Source: Alphaproteobacteria bacterium (GTDB lineage: Bacteria > Pseudomonadota > Alphaproteobacteria > MPNO01 > UBA830). Taken from it: DNA of 64,000 nucleotides. The translations under genes and the position numbers were made by a program. A model generated the notes under the pieces. It searched no databases and was not told the origin of the DNA. It worked only from the letters and a program-made list of their open reading frames with translations. The first letter of the stretch is position 1, and each line of letters opens with the position of its first letter. This document shows, one piece after another, positions 1,204 to 62,182 of the stretch. The DNA lies in the NCBI GenBank assembly GCA_964291215.2, contig OZ219791.1:2592001-2656000 (forward strand). The letters are read 5' to 3'.

Positions 1204-1284
1204 TCGCTTCCTCCATGGTAACTGCTCACCCCCTGGTTCCGGCTTGATGTCGGGGTAGAGCAACGAACGGGTTTTCGTGGAGAT

Positions 1285-1313
1285 TTGACACTGCATGCCG
1301 ATTCGCTTAGTGG
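1285..1313 (+). promoter_or_regulatory. Putative sigma70 promoter of the IS66 MTase-transposase operon
   Basis: TTGACA-17 nt-TAGTGG upstream of the GTG at 1342. Conserved in the copies near 38500, 42170 and 53270. Confidence 0.5.
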
Positions 1314-1341
1314 TGGTCATCGAGAACGACGGGGACCGCCA

Positions 1342-1470
1342 GTGGGCTACTTTGGATCGAAGGCGACGAGCGGGCTGTGCCAGCTGCTTCCGGGGCTCCA
1401 GCCTCCGCATGATCTGTATGTGGAAACGCATCTCGGAGGCGGCGCGCTGATGAAGCGCAAGGCCGGGTGA
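1342..1470 (+). pseudogene. Internally deleted Dam-like DNA adenine methyltransferase (N-terminal remnant)
   Basis: GYFGSKATSGLCQ..PPHDLYVETHLGGGALMKRKA corresponds to motifs X and I of alpha-class N6-adenine MTases. Its stop overlaps the transposase ATG (TGATG). Confidence 0.72.
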
Positions 1471-2849
1471 TGGCGACGGTCAACGCAGCGTCGCTGCGCG
1501 AGGAGTTCGAAGCGGCCAAGACCCGGATCGCGGCGCTGCGTGCGGCCGGCAAGGTGGCGGAAGAGGCCGTGATCCGCGTCCTCGTCATCCTGCTCGACAT
1601 CATCATCGTCGTCCTTCTGGAGAAGACCACGCGCAAAACGAGCCGGAACTCCGGTCTGCCGCCGTCACAGACGGACAAGGACGAGAGCGTGCCGGAAGCA
1701 ACGGCAAGGGCCCGAAGCCGAACCGGCAGATGGGCGACAACCTGCGCAAGACCATCGTCGAGGAGACGGTCGCGGCCTGCGACGCCTGCGGCGCTGACAT
1801 CGACGGCCCCGTCGATCGGGAGCGCCGCGTCCTCTACGACATCGTGTTCGAGGTCGTCGAGCGCCGCGCCGAGATCAAGGAATGTCCGAAGTGCAAGGCC
1901 CGGACCAAGGGCCGGTTCCCCGACAACATCCCGTGCAGTACGGCATCGGCATCCAGGCCCTCGTCATCAACCTGCTGGTCGCCCAAATGCTGTCCCTGCG
2001 CCGTGCCGTCGCGTTCGTGCAGGCGATCTCCGGCATCAAGCTCTCCGAGGCAACCTGCCTCGGCTATGCTTTCACGATGCGTCATGGGAGGAGGCCGCCG
2101 TGGCGCACCTCCTGCAACGCCCAGCCCTGCATGTCGACGAGACCGGATTTCGGATCAACAGTAAGTGGCTTCATGTCGTGGGACCCTGACGTGCAAGTTC
2201 CCGCACCGCAAGCGCGGCCGGGAGGCAATCGAAGAGATCGGCATCATCCCGCGCTACAAGGGCGTCCTGGTCCACGACTGCTGGGCCTCGTACATGGGCT
2301 ATGACCAGTGTAGCCACCAGCTGTGCGGCAGCCACCTGCTGCGCGAACTGACCTTTGTCGTCGAGGCTACCGCTGGGCGCGGCTGATGAAGAGCCTGCTC
2401 CGCGAGGTCTGCCACAAGGTCAACAAGAGCGCATCCAAGACCCTGAACGACGCCGGGCGCAAGCGCTACCGCACCATCAGGGCGCCAGGGAACTGCCCGA
2501 TATCCTGCCGCCGCCAAAAGGAAAACGTGGACGCAAGTCCGACGCGCACAACCTGCACGAACGTCTTGTGAAACACGAAAAGTCAGTCCTGCGCTTCACA
2601 GACGACCCCAACGTCAGCTTCACCAACAATGCCGGAGAACAGAAGATCAGGATGGCAAAGGTCAAGCTCAAGGTGTCCGGATGCTTCCGCACCATGCTCC
2701 ACGCAAAAGCATGGTGCCGGAGCTCAAGCTACCTCACCTCCATGGCCGCACTCGGCTACAACCCACTCGTCGCCACCCAGATCGCCCTCGACGGAAAAGC
2801 CGCAGACATCATCAACGAGCACTATGAATCAGAACCCAACAAGGGGTGA
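1470..2849 (+). pseudogene. IS66-family single-ORF transposase, frameshifted
   Basis: RKTSRNSGLPPS, zinc-finger CDACG..CPKC, LHVDETGFRI..WLHV, VLVHDCWASY, HQLCGSHLLREL, VSFTNNAGEQKIRMAKVKLKVSGCFRT. Confidence 0.88.
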
Positions 2850-2857
2850 GTAGATAC

Positions 2858-3412
2858 CCTCAAGGAATGGAACGCATCGTGCAGAGCGTCACGTGGTGGA
2901 GTAAAGACGCTCTTCCGGGTTCCTCTTCGCTACCTGCGTTCAGCCGCCTGTGACCCCCGCTTCTGCGCGCGGCGCGGGCTTTGGCCAATCGCATTGCCCT
3001 TCCCTCCAGCAACTCCGCAGGCTCCGAAGAACCCTTGTTCGCCGCCTTCAACGGTACTATGGCCGGATCTGACTTCTCGTTCATCATCGGTTTACGGAAT
3101 AGTTCCTTTCCTCTGCGGCCCCTCCACGACAGAGGGGCGATTGAAAGACCTCCCAGGTCCCTGCTTCGGCGCGTGCCATGGTTCTCGGACCCCGCGGAGC
3201 CCCCGCTCGCCTCACCAACGCGGCTCGTTGCCTTCGGCCACGACCTCGGCACTCCGGTTTCAAAGCATCTCGTGGCTCAATAGCCCGGCCTGCCGCTCCC
3301 CAACGCTTCGCCTGACGCCTCACGACGCATGGTTCACGGAGAAAGTGGTGGTTAGCCTCTCTTCCTGCCGGGACTTGCACCCGGCAACATTCCACCAGTT
3401 AGCCTGGCGCAC
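2858..3412 (-). mobile_element. Group II intron, 5' fragment, truncated by an IS66 right end
   Basis: Starts GTGCGCCAGG on the minus strand at 3412. Near-identical to 39213-39780 and 50202-50713. Confidence 0.85.
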
Positions 3413-3703
3413 CCAACGTCAGCTTCACCAACAATGCCGGAGAACAGAAGATCAGGATGGCAAAGGTCAAGCTCAAGGTGTCCGGATGCTTCCGCTCCAC
3501 GCAAAAGCATGGTGCCGGGGCTCAAGCTACCTCACCTCCATGGTGGCACTCGGCTACAACCCACTCGTCGCCACCCAGATCGCCCTCGACGGAAAAGCCG
3601 CAGACATCATCAACGAGCACTACGACCAATCAGAACCCAATTAGGGGTGAGTAGATACCCTCCATGAATGTTTTACAACTCCATGGGATAGCACGATGGC
3701 GCC

Positions 3704-3740: not shown

Positions 3741-3926
3741 CTCAAAGCGCAAACCTCAGACAAATTTCCAGACATCAAGTTACAGTACCTGGAGTTAGTT
3801 TGTCTTCGCGGAAGGTGGCGTCGCGGACATGATGATGGCTCTCAACTACCCAGTGTCCGCGATTCCATGCGAGCAGCTGTTGCGGCGAGGCGCGCTCGAC
3901 CGAGCATCCATGTTTCTTGGCAAGGT

Positions 3927-4093
3927 GTATCTACTCACCCCTCTACTTATGACGAAGATCGATCCGCTTCTTGTCAGCCGGAACACGCACCTCCGGTCAT
4001 CGGTCGCGAGCGAGTTAAAGGGGCAAGGGAAAATGCCGGATCCGAACCCGTCAGGAAAAACGATTCGTCATCAGTAGAGGGGTGAGTAGATAC
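3927..4093. mobile_element. 167-bp MITE-like unit bounded by two inverted IS66-type right ends
   Basis: GTATCTACTCACCCCTCTACT(T/G)ATGACGAA inverted repeat (30 bp, one mismatch). No TSD visible. Confidence 0.7.
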
Positions 4094-6010: not shown

Positions 6011-7600
6011 TCAGTGCCCGCGCGGAAATGACCGTTTTGGCTGCGATTCCGGCGAAATTTCTGGTTTGATCGCCCTTCCAGGTCCCGCTCCGTTTTCGGG
6101 GAGATTCCTGCTGATTCGCGGCGGTATCAGGGCTCTTCCAGCCGAGAAGCCGGACGAGCGGCTCCGTTCCCGCTCCCGGCGGGTTTCGCGGGTGGGGTGG
6201 AGGGATGCTGCCGTCAGGCGGCGCGTTTTCGTCGTCGTCGGGCCTGGGCTTGGGCCGTCTGTGCAACAGCAGGCGGTGGACATTGAAGGCGACCATGGAC
6301 AGCGCCACCATCCGCGCCGTCCGCCCCACAGGACCCGGTCCATGCCGCGTTGCTCAAGATTGTTGATCGCCGACTCCACGGCCGGATGCTGTCGGCGCAT
6401 CTCCCGGAATGTCGGGTCAGCTTCCCGTTCCGCCCGACCAGGCTTTCCCTTCTTCGGCAGCTCGTCCAGTGCAATCCGGTTGGAGGGGCTGTGGAACCCG
6501 CGATCGAAACTGCACAGGCCGGGGTAGCGAGCCTGTACTTCCCGGATCATGGGCACCGCATGGTCCACGTCACTGCCCTCCCACAGGATCCGGTGGTGCA
6601 GGAGGAAGCCGTGCTGGTCCTCCAGCATGGCCACCGGCACGCCGAGTTCCACCGGCACTTGCCCTTCACGCACCAGCGCTCCTCGAAGATCGAAAACACC
6701 CTCTCTTCCTGCGGGATCTTCTCGCCTTGGGCGGCGGTCCACCTGGTCGATCTGCCGGCGGGCATGGTTGAGGTACGATTTGATCTTGAGAATCCTGAAG
6801 GCCCCGACGCCCTTCTCCACAACCGTCTCTTGCGCTCCAACTCCCGGCTGTCGTCGAGGTACCATCCTCCGAAAAGGCCCGCCGGGTCTCTTCTGAAAGC
6901 GCTTCCCGCGGCTCCGATGCTGCCACTGCCGTCACCCCCGCGAGCACGGCTGCGCGGCCGCACCAGACAGCGCATCCCACAGCAGGTTGACGTCCGTCGG
7001 GTAGTGCACCTCACCACAAACGAATCGCAGCGGCCCCGCAAGGGACCGTCCGACTTGCGCTTGCGGACCATCGCATGGCCGCTCCCCGCCACCAGATGAG
7101 ATGCCTTCTCCAGCACTTCCGGCGTCAGATGGCTCACGTTCTCCAGCACCGTCCGATAGCTGTACCTCGTGTTGTCCCGGATATCGCCGTGGTCCGGGAA
7201 CTTCCGAACCGTCTCGTTCACCAGCTCGTGCAGATGATCGAGCCCAGGCCCTGCTTCAGGACACCAGGATCTTCCACAACGCCGGGACGCGCTTTCCTGT
7301 GGGACACTCCCGGAAGGATCCCCTCCTCCAGGATCTTGAACAGCCGGGTCGGCATACACGTGCTGAATCCCGCGCATGTCATCCCGCGAGTCTTCGCTGA
7401 GATCGATCTTCTCGATCGCAACCTGGCCCAATTCCAGCTGCGGAACGTTTCGCATGGCAATTCTCGCGAAGTTTTCCGAAAATCCGGCGGATTTCCGGTC
7501 TGATCGGCCAATTCCCGCCCCAAGGCGGGATTATTCGTCCCCTTTATATCAGGATTTCACCAAAAAAATCAAGCGATTTTATATTTTTTCCAGGCACTAA
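6011..7600 (-). mobile_element. ISNCY/IS5-like DDE element with frameshifted transposase (6011-7455)
   Basis: GRCDSFVV, VFSIFEE..WCVKGK, VPVELGVPVAMLEDQHGF, CSFDRGFHSP, RRQHPAVESAINNLEQRG. Ends resemble an imperfect AGTGCC..GGAAA IR. Confidence 0.7.
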
Positions 7601-7731
7601 CTCGGTGACGACATGAAGCGATTGGGTCCTGCCGTCGACCCGGAAGCCGGTTTCGTCGACATGCAGCGTTGGGCGTTCCAGCAGCTCGGCGATGGCGGCC
7701 TGCTCCCATGAGTGCAGCGCGTCATGCAGGC

Positions 7732-7918
7732 CAGGACTTTCCTACGCTGCATTCGATCTTACCGACTGCTGATGGAGGGAGGTTGCACAGCCTGCCGGGT
7801 TTTCCGGCCGCGGGGCCGTCCACGGGTCGCCGCAGCCGGAAAACCTGGCAAGAATGCGGAAATTTGTGCCCCGTTCAGCGGTCATTCAATACATCAACCA
7901 CAGCGTGGGAAAGTCTTG
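7732..7918. mobile_element. 187-bp MITE
   Basis: 18-bp IR CAGGACTTTCCTACGCTG / CAGCGTGGGAAAGTCTTG (16/18). 9-bp TSD CATGCAGGC at 7723-7731 and 7919-7927. Internal hairpin at about 7793-7850. Confidence 0.85.
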
Positions 7919-8283
7919 CATGCAGGCGCCTGACGTAGCAGAGGCAGGTGGCCTCGGAGAGGTCGGTACCGCAGGCGTCGCAGGCCTCGACGGCGACTGT
8001 CTCCTCGACGACGGTTTTCCGGAGGTTGTCGTCTGTCTGGAGGTTCGGCTTCGGGCCCTTGCCGCTGGCGCCCTTGCGCCGCTCGTCCTTGTCCGTCTAC
8101 GACGGCGGAAGGCCGGAGTCGGCGCCGGTCTTGCGGGTTGTCTTCTCCAGCAGGACGGCAAGCAGGATGCTCGGCAAGGTAAACAGTACGCGGATCACGT
8201 CATCGGCCTCTTTGGATATCTTGCCGGCAGCGCCGCGGTCCTGGCCGCCTCGAACGCCTCGCGCGCCGTGTTGACCGTCGCCA

Positions 8284-9421
8284 TCACCCGGCCTCAACAG
8301 TCATGATCGCCGCGAGCATCGCCCGGCGGCATCTTCCGGTAGCCCGCCGCCCGGCCTTGCGCTTGATGCGCTGACGGTCCGTGCGGTTCCGCCCGGCATC
8401 GCCGGCCGAGTGCATCCGCCCGGGCTCGAAGTCGAGCCACACCACCTCGGTGCGGACCCGGGTCGTCACCTGCACGGCGATGCGGCGCCAGTCCCGCAGG
8501 GTGAAAGTTTCGTATGGCACGGTTGCAGGCTCAGTACCATTTGTTCATCTCACAGTGCCGGGGTGTGATTTGGGCTGATGTTGTCGTTGGCTGGTGCGCC
8601 GTCTGCACCGATCATGGCCGTCCACGCGCTCTCGAAGCGGTCGGGCAGGGTGCGGAAGGTGATTGTCCGCCGACGATGCGCCAGCGCATGCCGGAGCGTT
8701 TCATGCGCTGTGTGACGAGGGTCTTGTTTGCCGCCTCGACAATTCCCGAGCCGGTTGCTTCAGCGCGTGGTAGCGCATGCGGTAGCGATGTTTGCGGAAG
8801 AAGGACAGTTCCCTGTCGACATCGGCCCGTTGGCTCCGCGGTGTCGCGAAGGTGGCGCAGCGTCCGGATCACCCTGTCGATGCCGCGGGGGTCGTGACAA
8901 AATCCTGTCCTGAAACGGGCGATTGTCACGAAAACCCGTTTTCGCCGCTGCCTTGCGACCGCACAACCGTGTTAAATCAATGATTTGAATTCGACATATG
9001 AGAACTGCACCCGTCCCGCAGCAGGTCGTCGTACAACGCCGAGGGGTGGCCCGAGACCATCGCCTGACACGGCAGCCCCTTGAGCAGTTCAAGGAGTTCG
9101 ACATGGTCGGCTTCGGTGTAGTTGTGGCGGTACCGCCGCTTCGACCGGCGGGTCGCCTGCAGGGGTCGCTGCAGACCAGTTCCGTGCCCCGGAATACAAG
9201 GCCGGCCAGAACCGCGTGGGCGCAGCCGTGGATCAGTTTCACCGGATAGTCGCACCCGAATCCGTCCAGCGCTCGCCGGTCGATCCCGATAGAGCACGGC
9301 GCCTTGCGCTTCATCAGCGCGCCGCCTCCCGGATGCGTTTCCACATACAGATCATGCGGAGGCTGGAGCCCAAGAAGCAGTTGGCACAGCCCGCTCGCGC
9401 CTTCGATCCAAAGTAGCCCAC
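8284..9421 (-). pseudogene. Dam-like (D12 class) DNA adenine methyltransferase, split by a MITE
   Basis: GYFGSKA..ETHPGGGALMKRKAP.SIGID..LIHGCAH..TELVCSDP / RRYRHNYTEADHVELLELLKGLPCQAMVSGHPSALYDDLLRD / WRRIAVQVTT..RTEVVWLDF..DRQRIKRKA. Confidence 0.75.
8499..9012 (-). mobile_element. 514-bp non-autonomous ISKra4/ISLre2-like deletion derivative
   Basis: IR GGGTGAAAGTTTCGTATG / CATATGAGAACTGCACCC. 8-bp TSD GTCCCGCA (8491-8498, 9013-9020). Retains transposase C-terminal motif GSGIVEAANKTLVTQRMKRSGMRW. Confidence 0.82.
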
Positions 9422-9545
9422 CGGTACTCCCCGTCGCTCTCGATGACCACCACTAACCGAATCAGCCTACAGTGCCAAATCTCCACGAAACCCCGTTCGT
9501 TGCTCTACCCTGACATCAAGCCGGAACCAGGGGGTGAGCAGATAC

Positions 9546-37034: not shown

Positions 37035-38572
37035 GTATCTACTCATCCCTAGTTGGGTTCTGATTGGTCGTAGTGCTCGTTGATGATGTCTGCGGCTTTT
37101 CCGTCGAGGGCGATCTGGGTTGCGACGTGATGATTGTAGCCGAGTGCGGCCATGGAGGTGAGGTAGCTTGAGCCCCGGCACCATGCTTTTGCGTGGAGCG
37201 GAAGCATCCGGGCACCTTGACCTTTGCCATCCTGATCTTCTGTTCTCCGGCATTGTTGGTGAAGCTGGCATCGGAGTCGTCCGTGAAGCGCAGGTTTTCG
37301 TGTTTCACGAGACGTTCGTGCAGGTTGTGCGCGTCGGACTTGCGTCCACGTTTTCCTTTCGGCGGGATGTCGGGCAGTTCCCTGGCGCCCTGATGGTGCG
37401 GTAGCGCTTGCGCCCGGCGTCGTTCAGGGTTTTGGATGCGCTCTTGTTGACCTTGTGGCAGACCTCGCGGAGCAGGCTCTTCATCAGTCGCGCGGTAGCC
37501 TCGACGACAAAGGTCAGTTCGCGCAGCAGGTGGCTGCCGCACAACTGGTGACTACACTGCCATGTACGAGGCCCAGGACGCCCTTGTAGCACGGGATGAT
37601 GCCGATCTCTTGCCTCTCGGCCGCGCTTGCGGTGCGGGAACTTGCACGTCAGGGTCCCACGACATGGAGCCACTTGCTGTTGATCCGAAATCGTCGACAT
37701 CGGGCGTTGCAGGAGGTGCGCCACGGCGGCCTCCTCCCATGACGCATCGTGAAAGCATGGCCGAGGCCTCGGAGAGCTTGATGCCGGAGACCGCCTGCAC
37801 GAGCGCGACGGCGCAGGGACAGCATCTGGGCGACCAGCAGGTTGATGACGAGGGCCTGGATGCCGTACTGCACGGGATGTTGTCGGGGAACCGGCCCTTG
37901 CACTTCGGGCATTCCTCGGCGTCGATGCGGCGCGACCTCGAACACGATGTCGTGCGGCGCTCGACGGGGTCGACGCCGTCGGCGCCGCAGGCGTCGCAGG
38001 CCGCGACCGTCTCCTCGACGATGGTCTTGCGCAGGTTGTCGCCCATCTGCTGGTTTGGCTTCAGGCCGTTGCTCCCGGCACGCTCTTGTCCGTCTGTGAC
38101 GGCGGCAGACCGGAGTTCCGGCTCGTGCGTGGTCTTCTCCAGAAGGACGACGATGAGGATGTCGAGCAGGAGGACGCGGATCACGGCATCTTCCGCCACC
38201 TTGCCGGCAGCGCCGCGGTCTTGGCCGCTTCGAACTCCTCGCGCGCCGCCCGTCGCCATCACCCGGCCTCGCCGCGAGCATTGCCTGGCGCTCGCCCGGC
38301 GGCATCTTCCGGTACTCCGCCGCCCGGCCTTGCGCTTCATCAGCACGCCGCCTTCGAGATGCGTTTCCACATACAGATCATGCGGAGGCTGGAGCCCCGG
38401 AAGCAGCTGGCACAGCCCGCTCGTCGCCTTCGATCCAAAGTAGCCCACTGGCGGTCCCCATCGTTCTCGATGACCACCACTAAGCGAATCGGCATGCAGT
38501 GTCAAATCTCCACGTAAACCCGTTCGTTGCTCTACCCCGGCATCAAGCCGGAACCAGGGGGTGAGCAGTTAC
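37035..38572 (-). mobile_element. IS66-like MTase-deletion copy (intron-free, decayed)
   Basis: Both IRs present. TSD GGAGAAAC / AGAGAAAC (7/8). Confidence 0.86.
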
Positions 38573-38972
38573 AGAGAAACCTTCTACGGGACTGGCCATC
38601 GGGGCGGATCGCGTCGGAGGCGGTGATGGCGGCATGGTACGGATCGAAGGCGACGACGGGTCTTTGCCAGGCGATCGTCGCAGCGATGCCGCCGCATGAC
38701 GTGTACATCGAGGCGTTCCTTGGAGGCGGCGCGATCATGAAGCGCAAGCCGCCGGTGCTGCGCAGCATCGGCATCGACCTCAATCGCCGGGCGATCGACA
38801 CCTTCCGTTGCGACCACCCGGTCGAACTTCACCATGACTGCGCCCTGCGCTTTCTCGCGACCTTCGCGTTCCAGGGCCGCGAACTGGTCTACTGCGACCC
38901 GTGCAGTCGACGCGCAGGTCGCAGCGCCGCTACCGCTTCGACTGCACGGACGACGACCATGTTGCGCTCCTC

Positions 38973-41900
38973 GTATCTACTCACCCCTAGTTGGGTTCTG
39001 ATTGGTCGTAGTGCTCGTTGATGATGTCTGCGGCTTTTCCGTCGAGGGCGATCTGGGTGGCGACGAGTGGGTTGTAGCCGAGTGCGGCCATGGAGGTGAG
39101 GTAGCTTGAGCCCCGGCACCATGCTTTTGCGTGGAGCGGAAGCATCCGGACACCTTGAGCTTTGCCATCCTGATCTTCTGTTCTCCGGCATTGTTGGTGA
39201 AGCTGACGTCGGGTGCGCCAGGCTAACTGGTGGAATGTTGCCGGGTGCAAGTCCCGGCAGGAAGAGAGGCTAACCACCACTTTCTCCGTGAACCATGCGT
39301 CGTGAGGCGTCAGGCGAAGCGTTGGGGAGCGGCAGGCCGGGCTATTGAGCCACGAGATGCTTTGAAACCGGAGTGCCGAGGTCGTGGCCGAAGGCAACAC
39401 CCCGCGAGCCGCGTTGGTGAGGCGAGCGGGGGCTCCGCGGGGTCCGAGAACCATGGCCGAAGCAGGGACCTGGGAGGTCTTTCAATCGCCCCTCTGTCGT
39501 GGAGGGGCCGCAGAGGAAAGGAACTATTCCGTAAACCGATGATGAACGAGAAGTCAGATTCGGCCATAGTACCGCTGAAGGCAGCGAACAAAGGTTCTCC
39601 GGAGCCTGCGGAGTTGCTGGAGGGAAGGCCAAGGGCAATGCGATTGGCCAAAGCCCGCGCCGCGCGCAGAAGCGGGGGTCACAGGCGGCTGAACGCAGGT
39701 AGCGAAGAGGAACCCGGAAGAGCGTCTTGTGGCGCTACTCCACCACGTGATGTCCTGCACGACGCGTTCCATTCCTTGAGGAAGGACGCGGCGGCGGGCG
39801 CGGACGGCGTTGTGTGGCAAGCGTACGCGGAAGGGGTGGGAGACCGTCTGGTTGACCTACACGACCGTGTGCACAGGGGTGCGTACCGAGCGCCTCCAGG
39901 GTCTACATTCCCAAGGAGGATGGAGGGCAACGACCGCTTGGCATTGCCTCGGACAAGATTCTTCAGCGGGCAGTGTGATTCTGGTACCGCTCTACGAAAC
40001 GGAGTTCCTCGGTTTCAGCTACGGTTTCCGGCCGGGGCGCATCACGCGCTCGACGCCGTCACGGTGGAACGGCGGAAGGTCAACTGGATCGTTGACGCCC
40101 GTGGGTTCTTCGACAATCTCGACCGCGACCATCTGATTGCGATGCTCGAGAAACGGATCGGGGGGTTATCCGGCTGATCATCAAGTGGCTGAACGCCGGC
40201 GTCATGGAAGGGACCGACTGGCAAGGGAACACCGCAGGGGGCGATTGTATCGCCCTGCCTCGCGAACGTTTACCTGCACTACGTGCGACTGGTTCCAGAA
40301 CCACTGGCGCAAGCGGATGGCTGGAGGTGACACGATCATTATGCGGACGACTTCGTGTGCGGCTTTCAGCATCTGGGCGATGCGCAGCGCTTTCTCCGGG
40401 ACCTTGGGGAGAGGCTGGCCCACTTGAACTGCACCCGGAAAATCATCGAGTTCGGTCGGTTTGCCAGAGCGAACCGCCGGAAGCAGGGCAAGACGTTCGA
40501 CTTCCTCGGCATGACGCACTTCTGCGAACAGACGAGGAAAGGCAGGTTCAGGGTCGGTCGCAAACCGTCTCGCAAACGGGCACCCTGCGGCGGATCAAGG
40601 GGGCCTTGCGCATGCGATGGCACGACAACCGGCACGAAACGGCCAAGTGGTGAGTCATCAACGGCTGGCTCAACTACTACGCCGTCCCGGGAAGCAGTCA
40701 ATCCCTGCAGGGGTTCATACACCAATGCAAACGGCTGCGTGCCCTTCGGCGACGCTCCCAAAAGGACTTCACCGGGGACATAGACACCCTTGCCGCCGCC
40801 CACTGAGCCAGCATCCGCCACCCGTGGCCAAACCAGCGCCTTGTCGTCAGGGGAGGAGCCGGATGCGAACAGCGCATGTCCGGTTCTGTGCGGGGGGACC
40901 GGGGCAACCCGGTTCCCTACCGCAATGGTTGTCTATGAAGCGCAGGTTTTCGTGTTTCACGAGACGTTCGTGCAGGTTGTGCGCGTCGGACTTGCGTCCA
41001 CGTTTTCCTTTCGTCGGGATGTCGGGCAGTTCCCTGGCGCCCTGATGGTGCGGTAGCGCTTGCGCCCGGCGTCGTTCAGGGTCTTGGATGCGCTCTTGTT
41101 GACCTTGTGGCAGACCTCGCGGAGCAGGCTCTTCATCAGTCGCGCGGTAGCCTCGACGACAAAGGTCAGTTCGCGCAGCAGGTGGCTGCCGCACAACTGG
41201 TGGCTACACTGCCATGTACGAGGCCCAAGACGCCCTTGTAGCACGGGCCGATCTCTTGCCTCCCGGCCGCGCTTGCGGTGCGGGAACTTGCACGTCAGGG
41301 TCCCACGACATGGAGCCACTTGCTGTTGATCCGAAAGCCGGTTTCATCGACATCGGGCGTTGCAGGAGGTGCGCCACGGCAGCCTCCTCCCATGACGCAT
41401 CGTGAAAGCATAGCCGAGGCCTCGGAGAGCTTGATGCCGGAGATCGCCTGCACGAGCGCGACGGCGCAGGGACAGTATCTGGGCGACCAGCAGGTTGATG
41501 ACGAGGGCCTGGATGCCGATGCCGTACTGCACGGGATGTTGTCGGGGAACCGGCCCTTGCACTTCGGGCATTCCTCGGCGTCGACGCGGCGCTCGACGAC
41601 CTCGAATACGATGTCGTGCGGCGCTCCCGATCGACGGGGCCGTCGATGTCGGCGCCGCAGGCGTCGCAGGCCGCGACCGTCTCCTCGACGATGGTCTTGC
41701 GCAGATTGTCGCCCATCTGCTGGTTCGGCTTCGGGCCGTTGCCCCCGGCACGCTCTTGTCCGTCTGTGACGGCGGCAGACCGGAGTTCCGGCTCGTGCGT
41801 GGTCTTCTCCAGAAGAACGACGTTGAGGATGACGAAGACGCGGATCACGGCCTCTTTCGGCACCTTGCCGGCCGCACGCAGCGCCGCGGTCTTGGTTGCT

Positions 41901-42242
41901 TCGAACTCCTCGCGCGCCGCCCGTCGCCATCACCCGGCCTCGACGGTCGCCGCAAGCATCGCCTGGCGCTCGCCCGGCGGCATCTTCCGGTACTCCGCCT
42001 TGCGCTTCATCAGCACGCCGCCTCCGAGATGCGTTTCCACATACAGATCATGCGGGGGCTGGAGCCCCGGAAGCAGCTGGCACAGCCCACTCGTCGCCTT
42101 CGATCCAAAGTAGCCCACTGGCGGTCCCCGTCGTTCTCGATTACCACCACTAAACGAATCGGCTTGCAGTGTCAAATCTCCACGAAAACCCGTTCATTAC
42201 TCTACCCCGACATCAAGCCGGAACCAGGGGGTGAGCAGTTAC
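38973..42242 (-). mobile_element. IS66-like MTase-deletion copy carrying a group II intron
   Basis: Both IRs present. Perfect 8-bp TSD CGCTCCTC (38965-38972, 42243-42250). Confidence 0.9.
39213..40926 (+). mobile_element. Group II intron with decayed reverse transcriptase/maturase ORF
   Basis: 5' GTGCG; domain V GAGCCGGATGCG..CGCATGTCCGGTTC; 3' CCCTACCGCAAT. RT motifs FLGFSYGFRPG, VNWIVDA.GFFD, GTPQG, YADDFVCGF, TFDFLGMTH. No endonuclease domain seen. Confidence 0.9.
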
Positions 42243-49968: not shown

Positions 49969-52900
49969 GTATCTACTCACCCCTAGTTGGGTTCTGATTG
50001 GTCGTGGTGCTCGTTGATGATGTCTGCGGCTTTTCCGTCGAGGGCGGTCTGGGTGGCGACGTGATGATTGTAGCCGAGTGCGGCCATGGAGGTGAGGTAG
50101 CTTGGCACCATGCTTTTGCGTGGAGCGGAAGCATCCGGACACCTTGACCTTTGCCATCCTGATTTTCTGTTCTCCGGCATTGTTGGTGAAGCTGACGTCG
50201 GGTGCGCCAGGCAAACTGGTGGAATGTGGCCGGGTGCAAGTCCCGAGAGAGGCTAATTTCTCCGTGAACCATGCGTCGCCAGGCGAAGCGTTGGGGAGCG
50301 GCAGGCTATTGAGCCACGAGATGCTTTGAAACCGGAGTGCCGAGGTCGTGGCCGAAGGCAACGAGCCGCGTTGGTGAGGGGGGCTCCGCGGGGTCCGAGA
50401 ACCAGGGCACGCGCCGAAGCAGGGACCTGGGAGGTCTTGCCCCTCTGTCGTGGAGGGGCCGCAGAGGAAAGGAACTAATCCGTAAACCGATGATGAACGA
50501 GAAGTCAGATTCGGCCATAGTACCGTTGAAGGCGGCGAACAAGGGTTCTTCGGAGCCTGCGGAGTTGTTGGAGGGAAGGGCAATGCGGTTGGCCCGCGCC
50601 GCGCGCAGAAGCGGGGGTCACAGGCGGCTGAACGCAGGTAGCGAAGAGGAACCCGGAAGAGCGTCTTTACTCCACCACGTGACGTTCTGCACGATGCGTT
50701 CCATTCCTTGAGGAAGGACGCGGCGGCGGGGCGTTGTGTGGCAAACGTACGGGGTGGAACTGCCTGCACGCCCGTGTGCACAGGGGCGGGCGCCTCCAGG
50801 GTTTACATACCCAAGGAGGATGGAGGGCAACTTGCCTCGGACAAGATTCTTCAGCGGGCGGTGTGATTCTGGTGCCGCGAGACGGAGTTCCTCGGGTTTA
50901 GTTACGGCTTCCGGCCGGGGCGCATCATGCGCCGTCACGGTGGAACGGCGGAAGGTCAACTGGATCGTTGACGCTCGTGGGTTCTTCGACAATCTCGACC
51001 GCGACCATCTGGTTGCGATGCTCGGGAAACGGATCGGGGGGTCTGATCATCAAGTGACGCCGGCGTCATGGAAGGGACCGACTGGCAAGGGAACACCGCA
51101 AGGGGCGGCGCCCTGCCTTGCGAACCTGCACTACGTGCGACTGGTTCCAGAACCACTGGCGCAAGCGGGACACGATCATTATGCGGACGACTTCGTGTGC
51201 GGCTTTCAGAATCTGGGCGACGCTGGGACCTTGGGGAGAGACTGGCCCACTTGAACTGCACCCGGAAAATCATCGAGTTCGGTCGGTTTGCCAGAGCGAA
51301 CCGCCGGAAGCGTGGACAAGACGTTCGACTTCCTCGGCATGACGCACTTCTGCGAACAGACGAGGAAAGGCAGGTTCAGGGTCGGTCGCAAACGGGCACC
51401 CTGCGGCGGATCAAGGAGGCCTTGCGCATGCGGTGGCACGATAACCGGCACGAAACGGCCAAGTGGTGAGTTATCAACGGCTGCTACTACGCCGTTCCAG
51501 GAAGCAGCCTGCAGAAGTTCATACACCAATGCAAACAGCTGCGTGCCCTTCGGCGACGCTCCCAAAAGGACTTCACCGGGGACATAGACACCCTCACCGC
51601 TGCCCACTGAGCCCGTGGCCAAACCAGCGCCTTGTCGTCAGGGGAGGAGCGAACAGCGCACGTCCGGTTCTGTGCGGGGGGTAACCCGGTTCCCTACCGC
51701 GATGGTCGTCTGTGAAGCGCAGGTTTTCGTGTTTCACGAGACGTTCGTGCAGGGTATCTACTCACCCCTTGTTGGGTTCTGATTCATAGTGCTCGTTGAT
51801 GATGTCTGCGGCTTTTCCGTCGAGGGCGATCTGGGTGGCGACGAGTGGGTTGTAGCCGAGTGCGGCCATGGAGGTGAGGTAGCTTGAGCTCCGGCACCAT
51901 GCCTTTGCGTGGGGCATGGTGCGGAAGCATCCGGACACCTTGACCTTTGCCATCCTGATCTTCTGTTCTCCGGCATTGTTGGTGAAGCTGACGTTGGGGT
52001 CGTCTGTGAAGCGCAGGTTTTCGTGTTTCACGAGACGTTCGTGCAGGTTGTGCGCGTCGGACTTGCGTCCACGTTTTCCTTTCGGCGGCGGCGGGATATC
52101 GGGCAGTTCCCTGGCGCCCTGCGTGAGGATGGTGCGGTAGCGCTTGCGCACGGCCCGGCGTCGTTCAGGGTTTTGGATGCGCTCTTGTTGACCTTGTGGA
52201 AGACCTCGCGGAGCAGGCTCTTCATCAGTCGCGCCCAGCGGTAGCCTCGACGACAAAGGTCAGTTCGCGCAGCAGGTGGCTGCCGCACAACTGGTGGCTA
52301 CACTGGCCCATGTACGAGGCCCAGCAGTCAGGACGCCCTTGTAGCGCGGGATGATGCCGATCTCTTGCCTCCCGGCCGCGCTTGCGGTGCGGGAACTTGC
52401 ACGTCAGGGTCCCACGACATGGAGCCACTTACTGTTGATCCGAAATCGTCGACATCGGGCGTTGCAGGAGATGCGCCACGGCGGCCTCCTCCCATGACAC
52501 GAGCGCATCGTGAAAGCATAGCCGAGGCCTCGGAGAGCTTGATGCCGGAGATCGCCTGCACGAACGCGACGGCACGGCGCAGGGACAGCATTTGGGCGAC
52601 CAGCAGGTTGATGACGAGGGCCTGAATGCCGATGCCGTACTGCACGGGATGTTGTCGGGAAACCGGCCCCGGGCCTTGCACTTCGGGCATTCCTTGATCT
52701 CGGCGCGGCGCTCGACGACCTCGAACACGATGTCATAGAGGACGCGGCGCTCCCGATCGACGGGGCCGTCGATGTCAGCGTCGCAGGCCGCGACCGTCTC
52801 CTCGACGATGGTCTTGCGCAGGTTGTCGCCCATCTGCCGGTTCGGCTTCGGGCCCTTGCCGTTGCTTCCGGCACGCTCTCGTCCTTGTCCGTCTGTGACG

Positions 52901-53344
52901 GCGGCAGACCGGAGTTCCGGCTCGTGCGTAGTCTTCTCCAGAAGGACGACGATGAGGATGTCGAGCAGGATGACGAAGACGCGGATCACGGCCTCTTTCG
53001 GCACCTTGCCGGCCGCACGCAGCGCCGCGGTCTTGGCCGCTTCGAACTCCTCGCGCGCCGCGTTGACCGTCGCCATCACCCGGCCTCGACGGTCATGATC
53101 GTCGCGAGCATCGCCTGGCGCTCGCCCGGCGGCATCTTCCGGTACTCCGCCTTGCGCTTCATCAGCGCGCCGCCTCCGATGGCACAGCCCGCTCGTCGCC
53201 TTCGATCCAAAGTAGCTCACTGCCGGTCCCCGTCGTTCTCGATGACCACCACTAAACGAATCGGCCTGCAGTGTCAAATCTCCACGAAAACCCGTTCGTT
53301 GCTTTACCCCGACATCAAGCCGGAACCAGGGGGTGAGCAGTTAC
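49969..53344 (-). mobile_element. Tandem IS66-like composite: 3' remnant with intron (49969-51753) plus full decayed copy (51754-53344)
   Basis: IRR GTATCTACTCACCCC at 49969 and 51754; IRL ends at 53344. No TSD found. Confidence 0.85.
50202..51703 (+). mobile_element. Group II intron copy (more eroded)
   Basis: 5' GTGCG, 3' CCCTACCGCGAT, HYADDFVCGF; same target site as 39213. Confidence 0.88.
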
Positions 53345-61501: not shown

Positions 61502-62027
61502 GGGTGAGAGTTTCGTATGGCACGGTTGCAGGCTTAGTACCATTTGTTCATCTCATGCGGCCAGTGCCGGGGTGTGATTTGGGCTGATGTTGTCGTTGGC
61601 TGGTGCGTCGTCTGCACCGATCATGGCCGCCCACGCGCTCTCGAAGCGGCCGGATTCGAGCAGGGCGCGGAAGGTGATTGTCCGCCGACGATGCGCCAGC
61701 GCATGCAGGAGCGTTTCGTGCGCTGTGTGACGAGGGTCTTGTTTGCCGCCTCGACAATTCCCGAGCCGGTTGCTTCAGCGCGTGGTAGCGCATGCGGTGG
61801 CGATGCTTGCGGAAGAAGGACAGTTCCCTGTCGATGTCGGCCCGTTGGCGCCGCGGTGTCGCGAAGGTGGCGCAGCGCCCGGATCACCCTGTCGATGCCG
61901 CGGGGGTCGTGACAAAATCCTGTCCTGAAACGGGCGATTGTCACGAAAACCCGTTTTCGCCGCTGCCTCGCGACCGCACAACCATGTTAAATCAATGACT
62001 TGGATTCGCCATACGAGAACCGCACCC
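61502..62027 (-). mobile_element. Second copy of the ISKra4/ISLre2-like non-autonomous element
   Basis: Colinear with 8499-9012, with the same IRs. No TSD. Confidence 0.82.
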
Positions 62028-62182
62028 GTCACAGGGCGCGGTTGTCGCTGCGCTCTGTCCTCGGAAAACCATGTCGGTAGGAAACGGCACCATTGCCCGG
62101 ATGCCACGGTCGTGAGACGGGTCGCAAGGACATCGCGCCCGCAGGCACGACACGCTGTTCTAATCAAAACGGAATTGTCTCA

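Follow-up and report, generated by a model that had tools for sequence, protein, structure and literature searches.

At positions 7602–9545 of the window (the whole 64-kb stretch of DNA analysed) lies a decayed IS66 element whose transposase gene sits behind a small gene of Dam-type fold (Table 1). The first-pass annotation had described five copies of the element, and all five left ends (GTAACTGCTCACCCC type) are present, at 1218(+), 9545(−), 38572(−), 42242(−) and 53344(−). As it also stated, four of the five retain a right end, with none found for the 9545 copy, and three have target duplications, matching at 8 of 8 positions for 1218/3658 and 42242/38973 and at 7 of 8 for 38572/37035. The duplications of the 1218 and 42242 copies are visible only after allowing for internal group II intron remnants; for the 53344 copy, 2 of 8 positions match at either candidate end.

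The layout attributed to all five copies, a left inverted repeat, a promoter region, a Dam-fold ORF, a TGATG overlap and a single tnpC, is indeed shared, but the gene is intact in none of the other four, where it has been cut to a stub of ~40 codons with its last ~20 codons present or absent. Likewise, the methyltransferase described as nearly whole in the 9545 copy has the motifs listed for it, but these are spread over three reading frames rather than one. This copy is a pseudogene with several deletions of 1–11 bp, one of which removes the PY of DPPY, and it is split by a 513-bp insertion flanked by a 9-bp duplication. The overlap itself is as described (TGA/ATG at 8286–8282). In transposase subfamily this copy differs from the remaining four (tnp 5′ end 83% alike, cassette 93%). 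Its putative promoter has a −35 element of TTGGCA (TTGACA in most copies) at 9478–9473, a 17-bp spacer and a −10 position at 9455–9450, and its leader hairpin has decayed (z −0.5), compared with an intact hairpin in the 1218 copy (z −2.7).

Table 1 Features of the window
Feature	Position	Strand	Remarks
Left inverted repeat (IRL) of the IS66 element	9518..9545	−	family A
Putative promoter/operator position	9449..9478	−
Leader hairpin position	9413..9455	−	over the ribosome-binding site
Upf31-family (Dam-fold) pseudogene, 5′ part	9013..9421	−	GTG start; motifs X and I to VI; frameshifted; DPPY damaged
Pseudogene motifs	9418 to 8298	−	GYFGSK 9418, ETHPGGGA 9341, IGID 9290, SDP 9170, SGHPSALY 9054, TEVVW 8451, RQRIKRKA 8376, VEAG 8298
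Inserted IS remnant, 513 bp	8500..9012		9-bp target duplication 8491–8499 / 9013–9021
Pseudogene, 3′ part	8284..8499	−	motif VIII and C-terminal helical domain; TGA overlaps transposase ATG
5′ remnant of IS66 tnpC, subfamily A2	7602..8284	−	stops, deletions, insertion; cut at 7602; no right inverted repeat (IRR)
Family-A copy	1218..3658	+	40-codon stub cassette; inner IRR 2857, outer IRR 3658; perfect 8-bp duplication; group II intron remnant inside
Family-A copy	37035..38572	−	cassette deleted; both inverted repeats; duplication 7/8
Family-A copy	38973..42242	−	cassette deleted; group II intron remnant inside; perfect 8-bp duplication
Family-A copy	51754..53344	−	cassette deleted; IRR present; no duplication
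Further IRR-bearing piece	49969–51753		after the 51754..53344 copy
Fragment of another cassette variant	38600..38972	+	begins WYGSK, like the G036 element; lacks promoter and transposase
Second copy of the ~520-bp IS remnant	61502–62030
Group II intron remnants	2858–3411, 39213–40927, 50202–51753		reverse transcriptase with YADD motif; antisense to transposase
IS-like transposase remnant, decayed	6011–7600	−	adjoins and truncates the element at 7602

Other mobile remnants lie in and around these copies. The insertion within the pseudogene is a non-autonomous IS remnant of ~520 bp with a 9-bp duplication, which occurs twice in the window and in 22 near-full copies in the genome; it had no Pfam match, and from its motif we take the 513-bp remnant to be ISKra4-like. 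An empty form of the 8490–9013 insertion is present in three public runs. Remnants of a group II intron occupy the same transposase site in three of the five copies, and the shortest piece has 62 genome matches of at least 400 bp. The transposase remnant that truncates the element had no Pfam match at E 0.01. Contigs of one public run (X1), possibly from the source sample, agree with 8069–8379 without differences, and an assembly artefact is unlikely.

Intact elements in other genomes

In a survey of a genome collection we examined the best 80 of 311 loci, which came from 17 genomes (by record label, 15 Alphaproteobacteria, 1 Dehalococcoidia and 1 Binatia). The gene was whole in 77 of these 80, a count biased by the loci having been found through the gene; 67 had both ends, and 51 of the 67 had a perfect duplication. 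At 49 of the 80 loci a whole gene, both inverted repeats and a perfect 8-bp duplication are combined with a transposase frame that is 470 codons or longer. The small gene does, then, lie inside the repeats and duplications of intact IS66 elements elsewhere, the check that the first-pass annotation had proposed, and its remark that no cognate endonuclease is present also held, the intact elements having only two ORFs between their repeats. Membership of IS66 is supported by the transposase of locus L012 (Pfam PF03050, 132 bits; NCBIfam NF033517, 284 against a cut-off of 180), and the family-A transposase remnants are 47–55% identical to IS66 proteins above the cut-off. Among 79 metagenome loci, 56 had enough downstream DNA for Pfam and 39 of those had PF03050; by tblastn, 61 of the 79 matched an IS66 transposase anywhere in the locus, and 11 of the 18 misses had <300 bp downstream.

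The gene was found in 6 of 41 relatives (this genome included) and in 7 of 78 genomes of the order, and was absent from 300 other genomes of the phylum at E ≤ 1e-60. Five loci in the Dehalococcoidia-labelled record (L007, L010, L022, L024 and L060) encode a small protein 86–94% alike to the alphaproteobacterial ones, reflecting either transfer across phyla or misbinning. Homologues on plasmids and phages, at 43–56% identity, had no transposase alongside in the records examined, and one plasmid homologue adjoins a named IS1380 element; 134 of 196 plasmid homologues are on conjugative plasmids. The family annotated as 'DNA adenine methylase' comprises 3,691 proteins.

Two families with contrasting cassettes

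This genome (G000; 6.15 Mb in two contigs) contains two families of the element, both of 2.3–2.5 kb filled by two ORFs, with no room for tnpA or tnpB. Family A, that of the window, has 220 left ends; in 138 copies a right end follows at no more than 3.2 kb, and 95 of these show a perfect 8-bp duplication. Most of the small gene is missing from 167 of the 220. A single common deletion junction, which leaves 40 codons and the same TGATG overlap, is found in 113 copies (81 two-ended, 60 of these with perfect duplications), related deletions in a further 54, and 15 copies keep the gene interior. Two family-A genes are whole, both on truncated elements, and no two of 112 two-ended copies were identical on comparison, the divergence being ~3%. 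Family A went on moving after the small gene was lost in cis, and the small protein is dispensable in cis for movement. Family B numbers 12 copies, of which 10 retain the gene whole, at 99–100% identity; of the 11 that are two-ended, 10 are flanked by a perfect 8-bp duplication.

Across the genome, 136 distinct small deletions in family-A copies were compared: their lengths peak at 5–7 bp (67 deletions), and 35 of the 136 show microhomology of at least 3 bp compared with ~9% at random. Erosion of the same kind seems to have affected the window's remaining IS and intron fragments.

The numerical dominance of gene-deleted copies would fit a cassette that is simply a captured promoter and translation start, its protein a self-regulating passenger of little matter to the element. 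The junctions point the same way, since at 164 of 167 tnp can still be translated from the start of the cassette, through coupling or as a fusion, a count that stems from only about three primary deletions. We nevertheless consider such a passenger quite improbable: dN/dS was 0.09–0.24 in 13 of 13 pairs, indicating purifying selection, the gene is whole at nearly all of the surveyed (gene-found) loci, and a protein repressing the promoter that it shares with the coupled transposase must affect that transposase.

A shortened Dam fold homologous to Upf31

The first-pass assignment to Dam-like, alpha-class methyltransferases stands as to fold and the order of motif I before DPPY, but neither the target-recognition domain nor a score above the family cut-off was found. 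In a structure model (pLDDT 77), the best-matching folds are DpnM, Dam and T4Dam (Z 16.7, 16.7 and 15.8; rmsd 3.2, 2.2 and 1.8 over 150, 142 and 135 aligned residues). Residues 6–168 cover the entire Dam-type chains of 240–260 residues with the target-recognition domain missing; from motif I to DPPY there are 59 residues, ~90 fewer than the ~150 of DpnM. Two low-confidence helices follow at residues 181–216. The proposed PF02086 search gave 13–19.7 bits against a cut-off of 22 for three of four proteins and no match for the fourth, and TIGR00571 scored 24 against 115; some homologues carry a precomputed PF02086 label. A homodimer prediction scored 0.22 against a mark of 0.42, which speaks neither for nor against a dimer.

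The protein is homologous over its full length, C-terminal domain included, to Upf31 of plasmid pBP136 (97 of 222 residues identical, 44%; E 9e-64), and a second comparison gave 43%, both over 221–222 residues at E ~1e-63. The 675-bp pBP136 gene used here is presumably upf31, judging from its length and position. Upf31 was reported to repress its own promoter ~50-fold, from 4.76 to 0.09 XylE units, and the substitutions Y180A, F185A and W198A, in C-terminal aromatic residues, to abolish repression (Elg et al. 2025, PMC11997246). Among 121 close homologues, the matching positions hold F in 93 and W in 118. By analogy with Upf31, with which its identity is only 44%, the IS protein would repress its own transcription. 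The same study found neither GATC methylation nor an SMRT signal for Upf31, the SMRT test having been made by motif finding in E. coli ER2796 with an expression vector rather than the plasmid (PMC11997246). Methylation as the main function, as first supposed, is therefore not borne out, the homologue being an autorepressor without detected methylation. Across 214 homologues, however, the catalytic motifs are near-invariant (DPP in 214, Y in 211 and the motif I Glu in 211), which is beyond what a pure repressor should need and counts against the autorepressor reading.

Shielding from restriction, another role suggested at first pass, drew no support beyond these conserved motifs. It would make the protein a low-specificity adenine methylase protecting the element or its carrier DNA during transfer, like Hia5/Hin1523 of Mu-like prophages. 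The absent target-recognition domain could mean relaxed specificity, the homologues reside on plasmids, many of them conjugative, and on phages, PADLOC gave a weak type II methyltransferase match (E 9e-21), and tight autoregulation would suit a toxic methylase. We think it very unlikely all the same: broad marks would have been obvious in SMRT data for induced Upf31, in which none were reported (PMC11997246), Hia5 has a region of target-recognition length (residues ~80–170) that this protein lacks, and a single conserved operator points to specific binding.

A conserved operator at the promoter

The cassette begins with a sigma70-type promoter, TTGACA-17-TATGCT; of 92 distinct upstream regions, 85 have TTGACA with at most one mismatch. 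Overlapping it, in 80 of the 85, is a TAG-N10-CTA palindrome with an unconserved spacer; the fuller operator reads CA(A/G)CATAG-N10-CTATGCT, and positions 10–12 pair with 23–25 in 82–83 of 85. The upf31 repeat, CAGCATCG-N10-CGAGACTG, lies in the same promoter register as in the IS cassettes, and the inverted repeat of upf31 has been named its likely operator (PMC11997246). When the promoter and inverted repeats of four elements were searched, as had been suggested, each element had one operator at the promoter; the inverted repeats of the four contained no operator or Dam-like sites, and L119 had one loose extra match. Strict promoter matches downstream of the first, as a second promoter before tnpC would require, occurred at only 2 of 13 loci, and 4 of the 13 had no strict match at all.

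Similar sites precede homologues outside the IS elements. Of 73 distinct phage homologues, 41 have such sites upstream, compared with 9 of 670 control windows, as do 4 of 7 annotated plasmid and phage homologues, compared with 0 of 17,370 control positions, with one to three upstream where present; our operator pattern was not found for the other 32 of 73 and 3 of 7. In this genome, 12 of 13 core matches are family-B promoters, where shuffles gave 1–7. On a Xanthomonas plasmid (L084), two tandem operators precede the gene (3923–3974) and a perfect one lies at the gene end (4668), before the genes that follow, an arrangement like the clustered repeats of IncP-1beta plasmids.

Operator and protein appear to vary together. 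F181 is present at each of the 75 loci whose operator core is perfect, many of these being near-identical copies, and the 4 loci that lack F181 all have an imperfect core. Family A departs from the pattern, with a degenerate palindrome (operator core 4/8), a weak −10 and a non-aromatic residue 181, so that the equivalent of F185 is absent; repression may have been lost or its specificity changed. Compared with L086, the family-A gene has a dN/dS of 0.23–0.26, and purifying selection despite a degenerate operator would suggest changed specificity or another function. This co-change rests on G000 and L086; searches for the gene in 41 relatives, 78 genomes of the order and 300 of the phylum revealed family-A elements in this genome alone.

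At position 9 of the operator, 79 of 85 IS regions, upf31 and most of the phage sites shown have an adenine. It could be the target if the protein were an active, highly specific methylase of its own operator, whose mark sets promoter activity, a role that may coexist with repression. Such a switch would make expression of the transposase depend on replication or on entry into a cell without the mark, much as Dam does with IS10 and IS50. Consistent with this, the catalytic and SAM motifs stay near-invariant down to ~40% identity, Dam, DpnM and T4Dam head the fold matches, and a rare 26-bp site could have escaped SMRT motif finding in ER2796. Yet Upf31 was reported to show no methylation by SMRT or at GATC (PMC11997246), no target-recognition domain stands at the Dam position, and the adenine is gone from most family-A copies. 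We regard operator methylation as unlikely, though not negligibly so.

Between the −10 region and the ribosome-binding site a leader hairpin is predicted, with 81% of cells paired compared with 28–46% when slid, and 52 double changes compared with 24 in shuffles; this support is counting on a structure that we named ourselves, and RNAalifold returned no consensus pairs for the leader. The lower energy of the read-through form relative to the element's own transcript is partly an effect of length and is not proof. A leader structure hiding the Shine–Dalgarno sequence has been described for IS200 (PMC4513863).

One cassette, several transposases

The transposases that partner the cassette fall into groups only 20–30% alike, so a specific contact between protein and transposase is unlikely. 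At loci L134 and L115 the cassette genes are 91% alike and the transposases 22%; at L118 and L128 the genes are 76% alike with no transposase match, the L128 partner being a non-IS66 DDE protein. In a tree of 43 proteins, L115 falls within L113/L132/L134 (96/87) and family A within the family-B types (100/99), with bootstrap support unsettled and family A on a long branch, whereas the family-A transposase is closer to the L103 group (52–55% versus 30–36%). The promoter–operator–gene cassette has been exchanged between distant transposases.

A 3,212-bp element in genome G036, with 8-bp duplications, has the cassette before tnpC and tnpB at its far end on the opposite strand. The idea that the cassette stands in place of tnpA/tnpB fails here, as this element has both the cassette and tnpB. 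At L128 (164–2767) and L149, cassette and operator precede a DDE-like protein of 532 residues with candidate inverted repeats (14/20). That protein matched no Pfam or NCBIfam family; the nearest clusters to the L128 protein are labelled Mutator/ISL3, which we treat as a lead only, and the element is possibly of an unclassified IS family.

A probable portable autorepressor

The means by which an IS restrains its own transposase have been worked out in few families, with little study devoted to regulation in IS66. Of the roles first proposed for the small gene, regulation of transposase expression fared best, on the strength of the Upf31 homology and the conserved operator. We think its main role is probably that of an autorepressor that limits transposase expression from a borrowed promoter–operator–gene cassette. 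One mRNA from the TTGACA-17-TATGCT promoter would carry the small gene and tnpC, with the stop/start overlap coupling translation of the second to the first. The small protein, probably a dimer through its C-terminal helices, would bind the N10-spaced palindrome and close the promoter. Repression would act in trans, allowing a burst of transposase in a naive cell. The element's own transcript would start ~7 bases past the −10 box, so that the hairpin would be only partly formed, and on transcripts reading through from host promoters the hairpin would hide the ribosome-binding site. Elements with intact cassettes and operators are still present in many identical copies (22 in G036), so any such brake must be leaky.

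A bolder proposal, which we hold to be doubtful, combines repression with methylation: a Dam-derived protein without a target-recognition domain would be a portable transcription switch, both occupying and marking a 26-bp operator of its own. It would serve phages, plasmids and five or more transposase lineages, and in insertion sequences it would act as a brake on copy number with epigenetic memory. If that were true, loss of the brake would explain the growth of family A to >200 copies in G000, where family B, its cassette intact, has 12 copies against the 220 left ends of family A, a natural contrast from one genome only.

Under autorepression, a repressor cassette that moves between distant transposases would be an unusual solution to limiting transposase. 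The large 'DNA adenine methylase' family gains a concrete candidate binding site, and whether Upf31 is a repressor, a methylase or both is now directly testable with a short operator.

Comparison with known systems

Both parts of the element are of known kinds, an IS66 element and an Upf31-like protein; in the titles and abstract openings of the literature searched we found no description of their combination in this IS organisation (ISfinder and REBASE lay outside the search). Families A and B resemble single-ORF IS66 members such as ISGst1 in their PF03050/NF033517 transposase, GTAA-starting inverted repeats, 8-bp duplications and lack of tnpA and tnpB, an organisation that would fit the ISBst12-type grouping; the nearest named plasmid transposase carries an ISGst1 family annotation, at 36% identity. 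They differ from these in the extra promoter–operator–gene cassette between the left repeat and tnpC, to which it is coupled. Compared with classical three-gene IS66 elements, families A and B lack tnpA and tnpB, whereas the G036 element has tnpB.

The protein shares with Dam, DpnM and T4Dam (PF02086) the catalytic fold, motif I before motif IV and DPPY, but has ~90 fewer residues from motif I to motif IV and an added C-terminal helical pair, and scores below the cut-off. To Upf31 of IncP-1beta plasmids it is alike in length, two-domain build, motifs and a TTGACA promoter with an N10-spaced repeat. The half-sites differ, CA(A/G)CATAG in the IS compared with CAGCATCG in upf31, and the IS protein sits within an element that lacks KorB and is predicted to control the transposase. 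BLASTN of plasmids was reported to place Upf31 homologues almost only on IncP-1beta (PMC11997246); the family found here is much wider.

Orf121 of IS91 is likewise a small upstream ORF that overlaps the transposase gene, provides the promoter for both and lowers transposition (bioRxiv 10.1101/2025.01.24.634351). It is an unrelated protein of a rolling-circle element, and the abstract of that preprint mentions neither a methylase fold nor a portable operator. Some transporter IS (tIS) carry methyltransferases. In tIS and in methylase or restriction–modification units flanked by inverted repeats, an extra gene similarly lies inside IS ends (PMC9330008, PMC2853133). Here, by contrast, the extra gene is upstream of the transposase gene, coupled to it and probably regulates it, and it has moved with its operator between transposase lineages.
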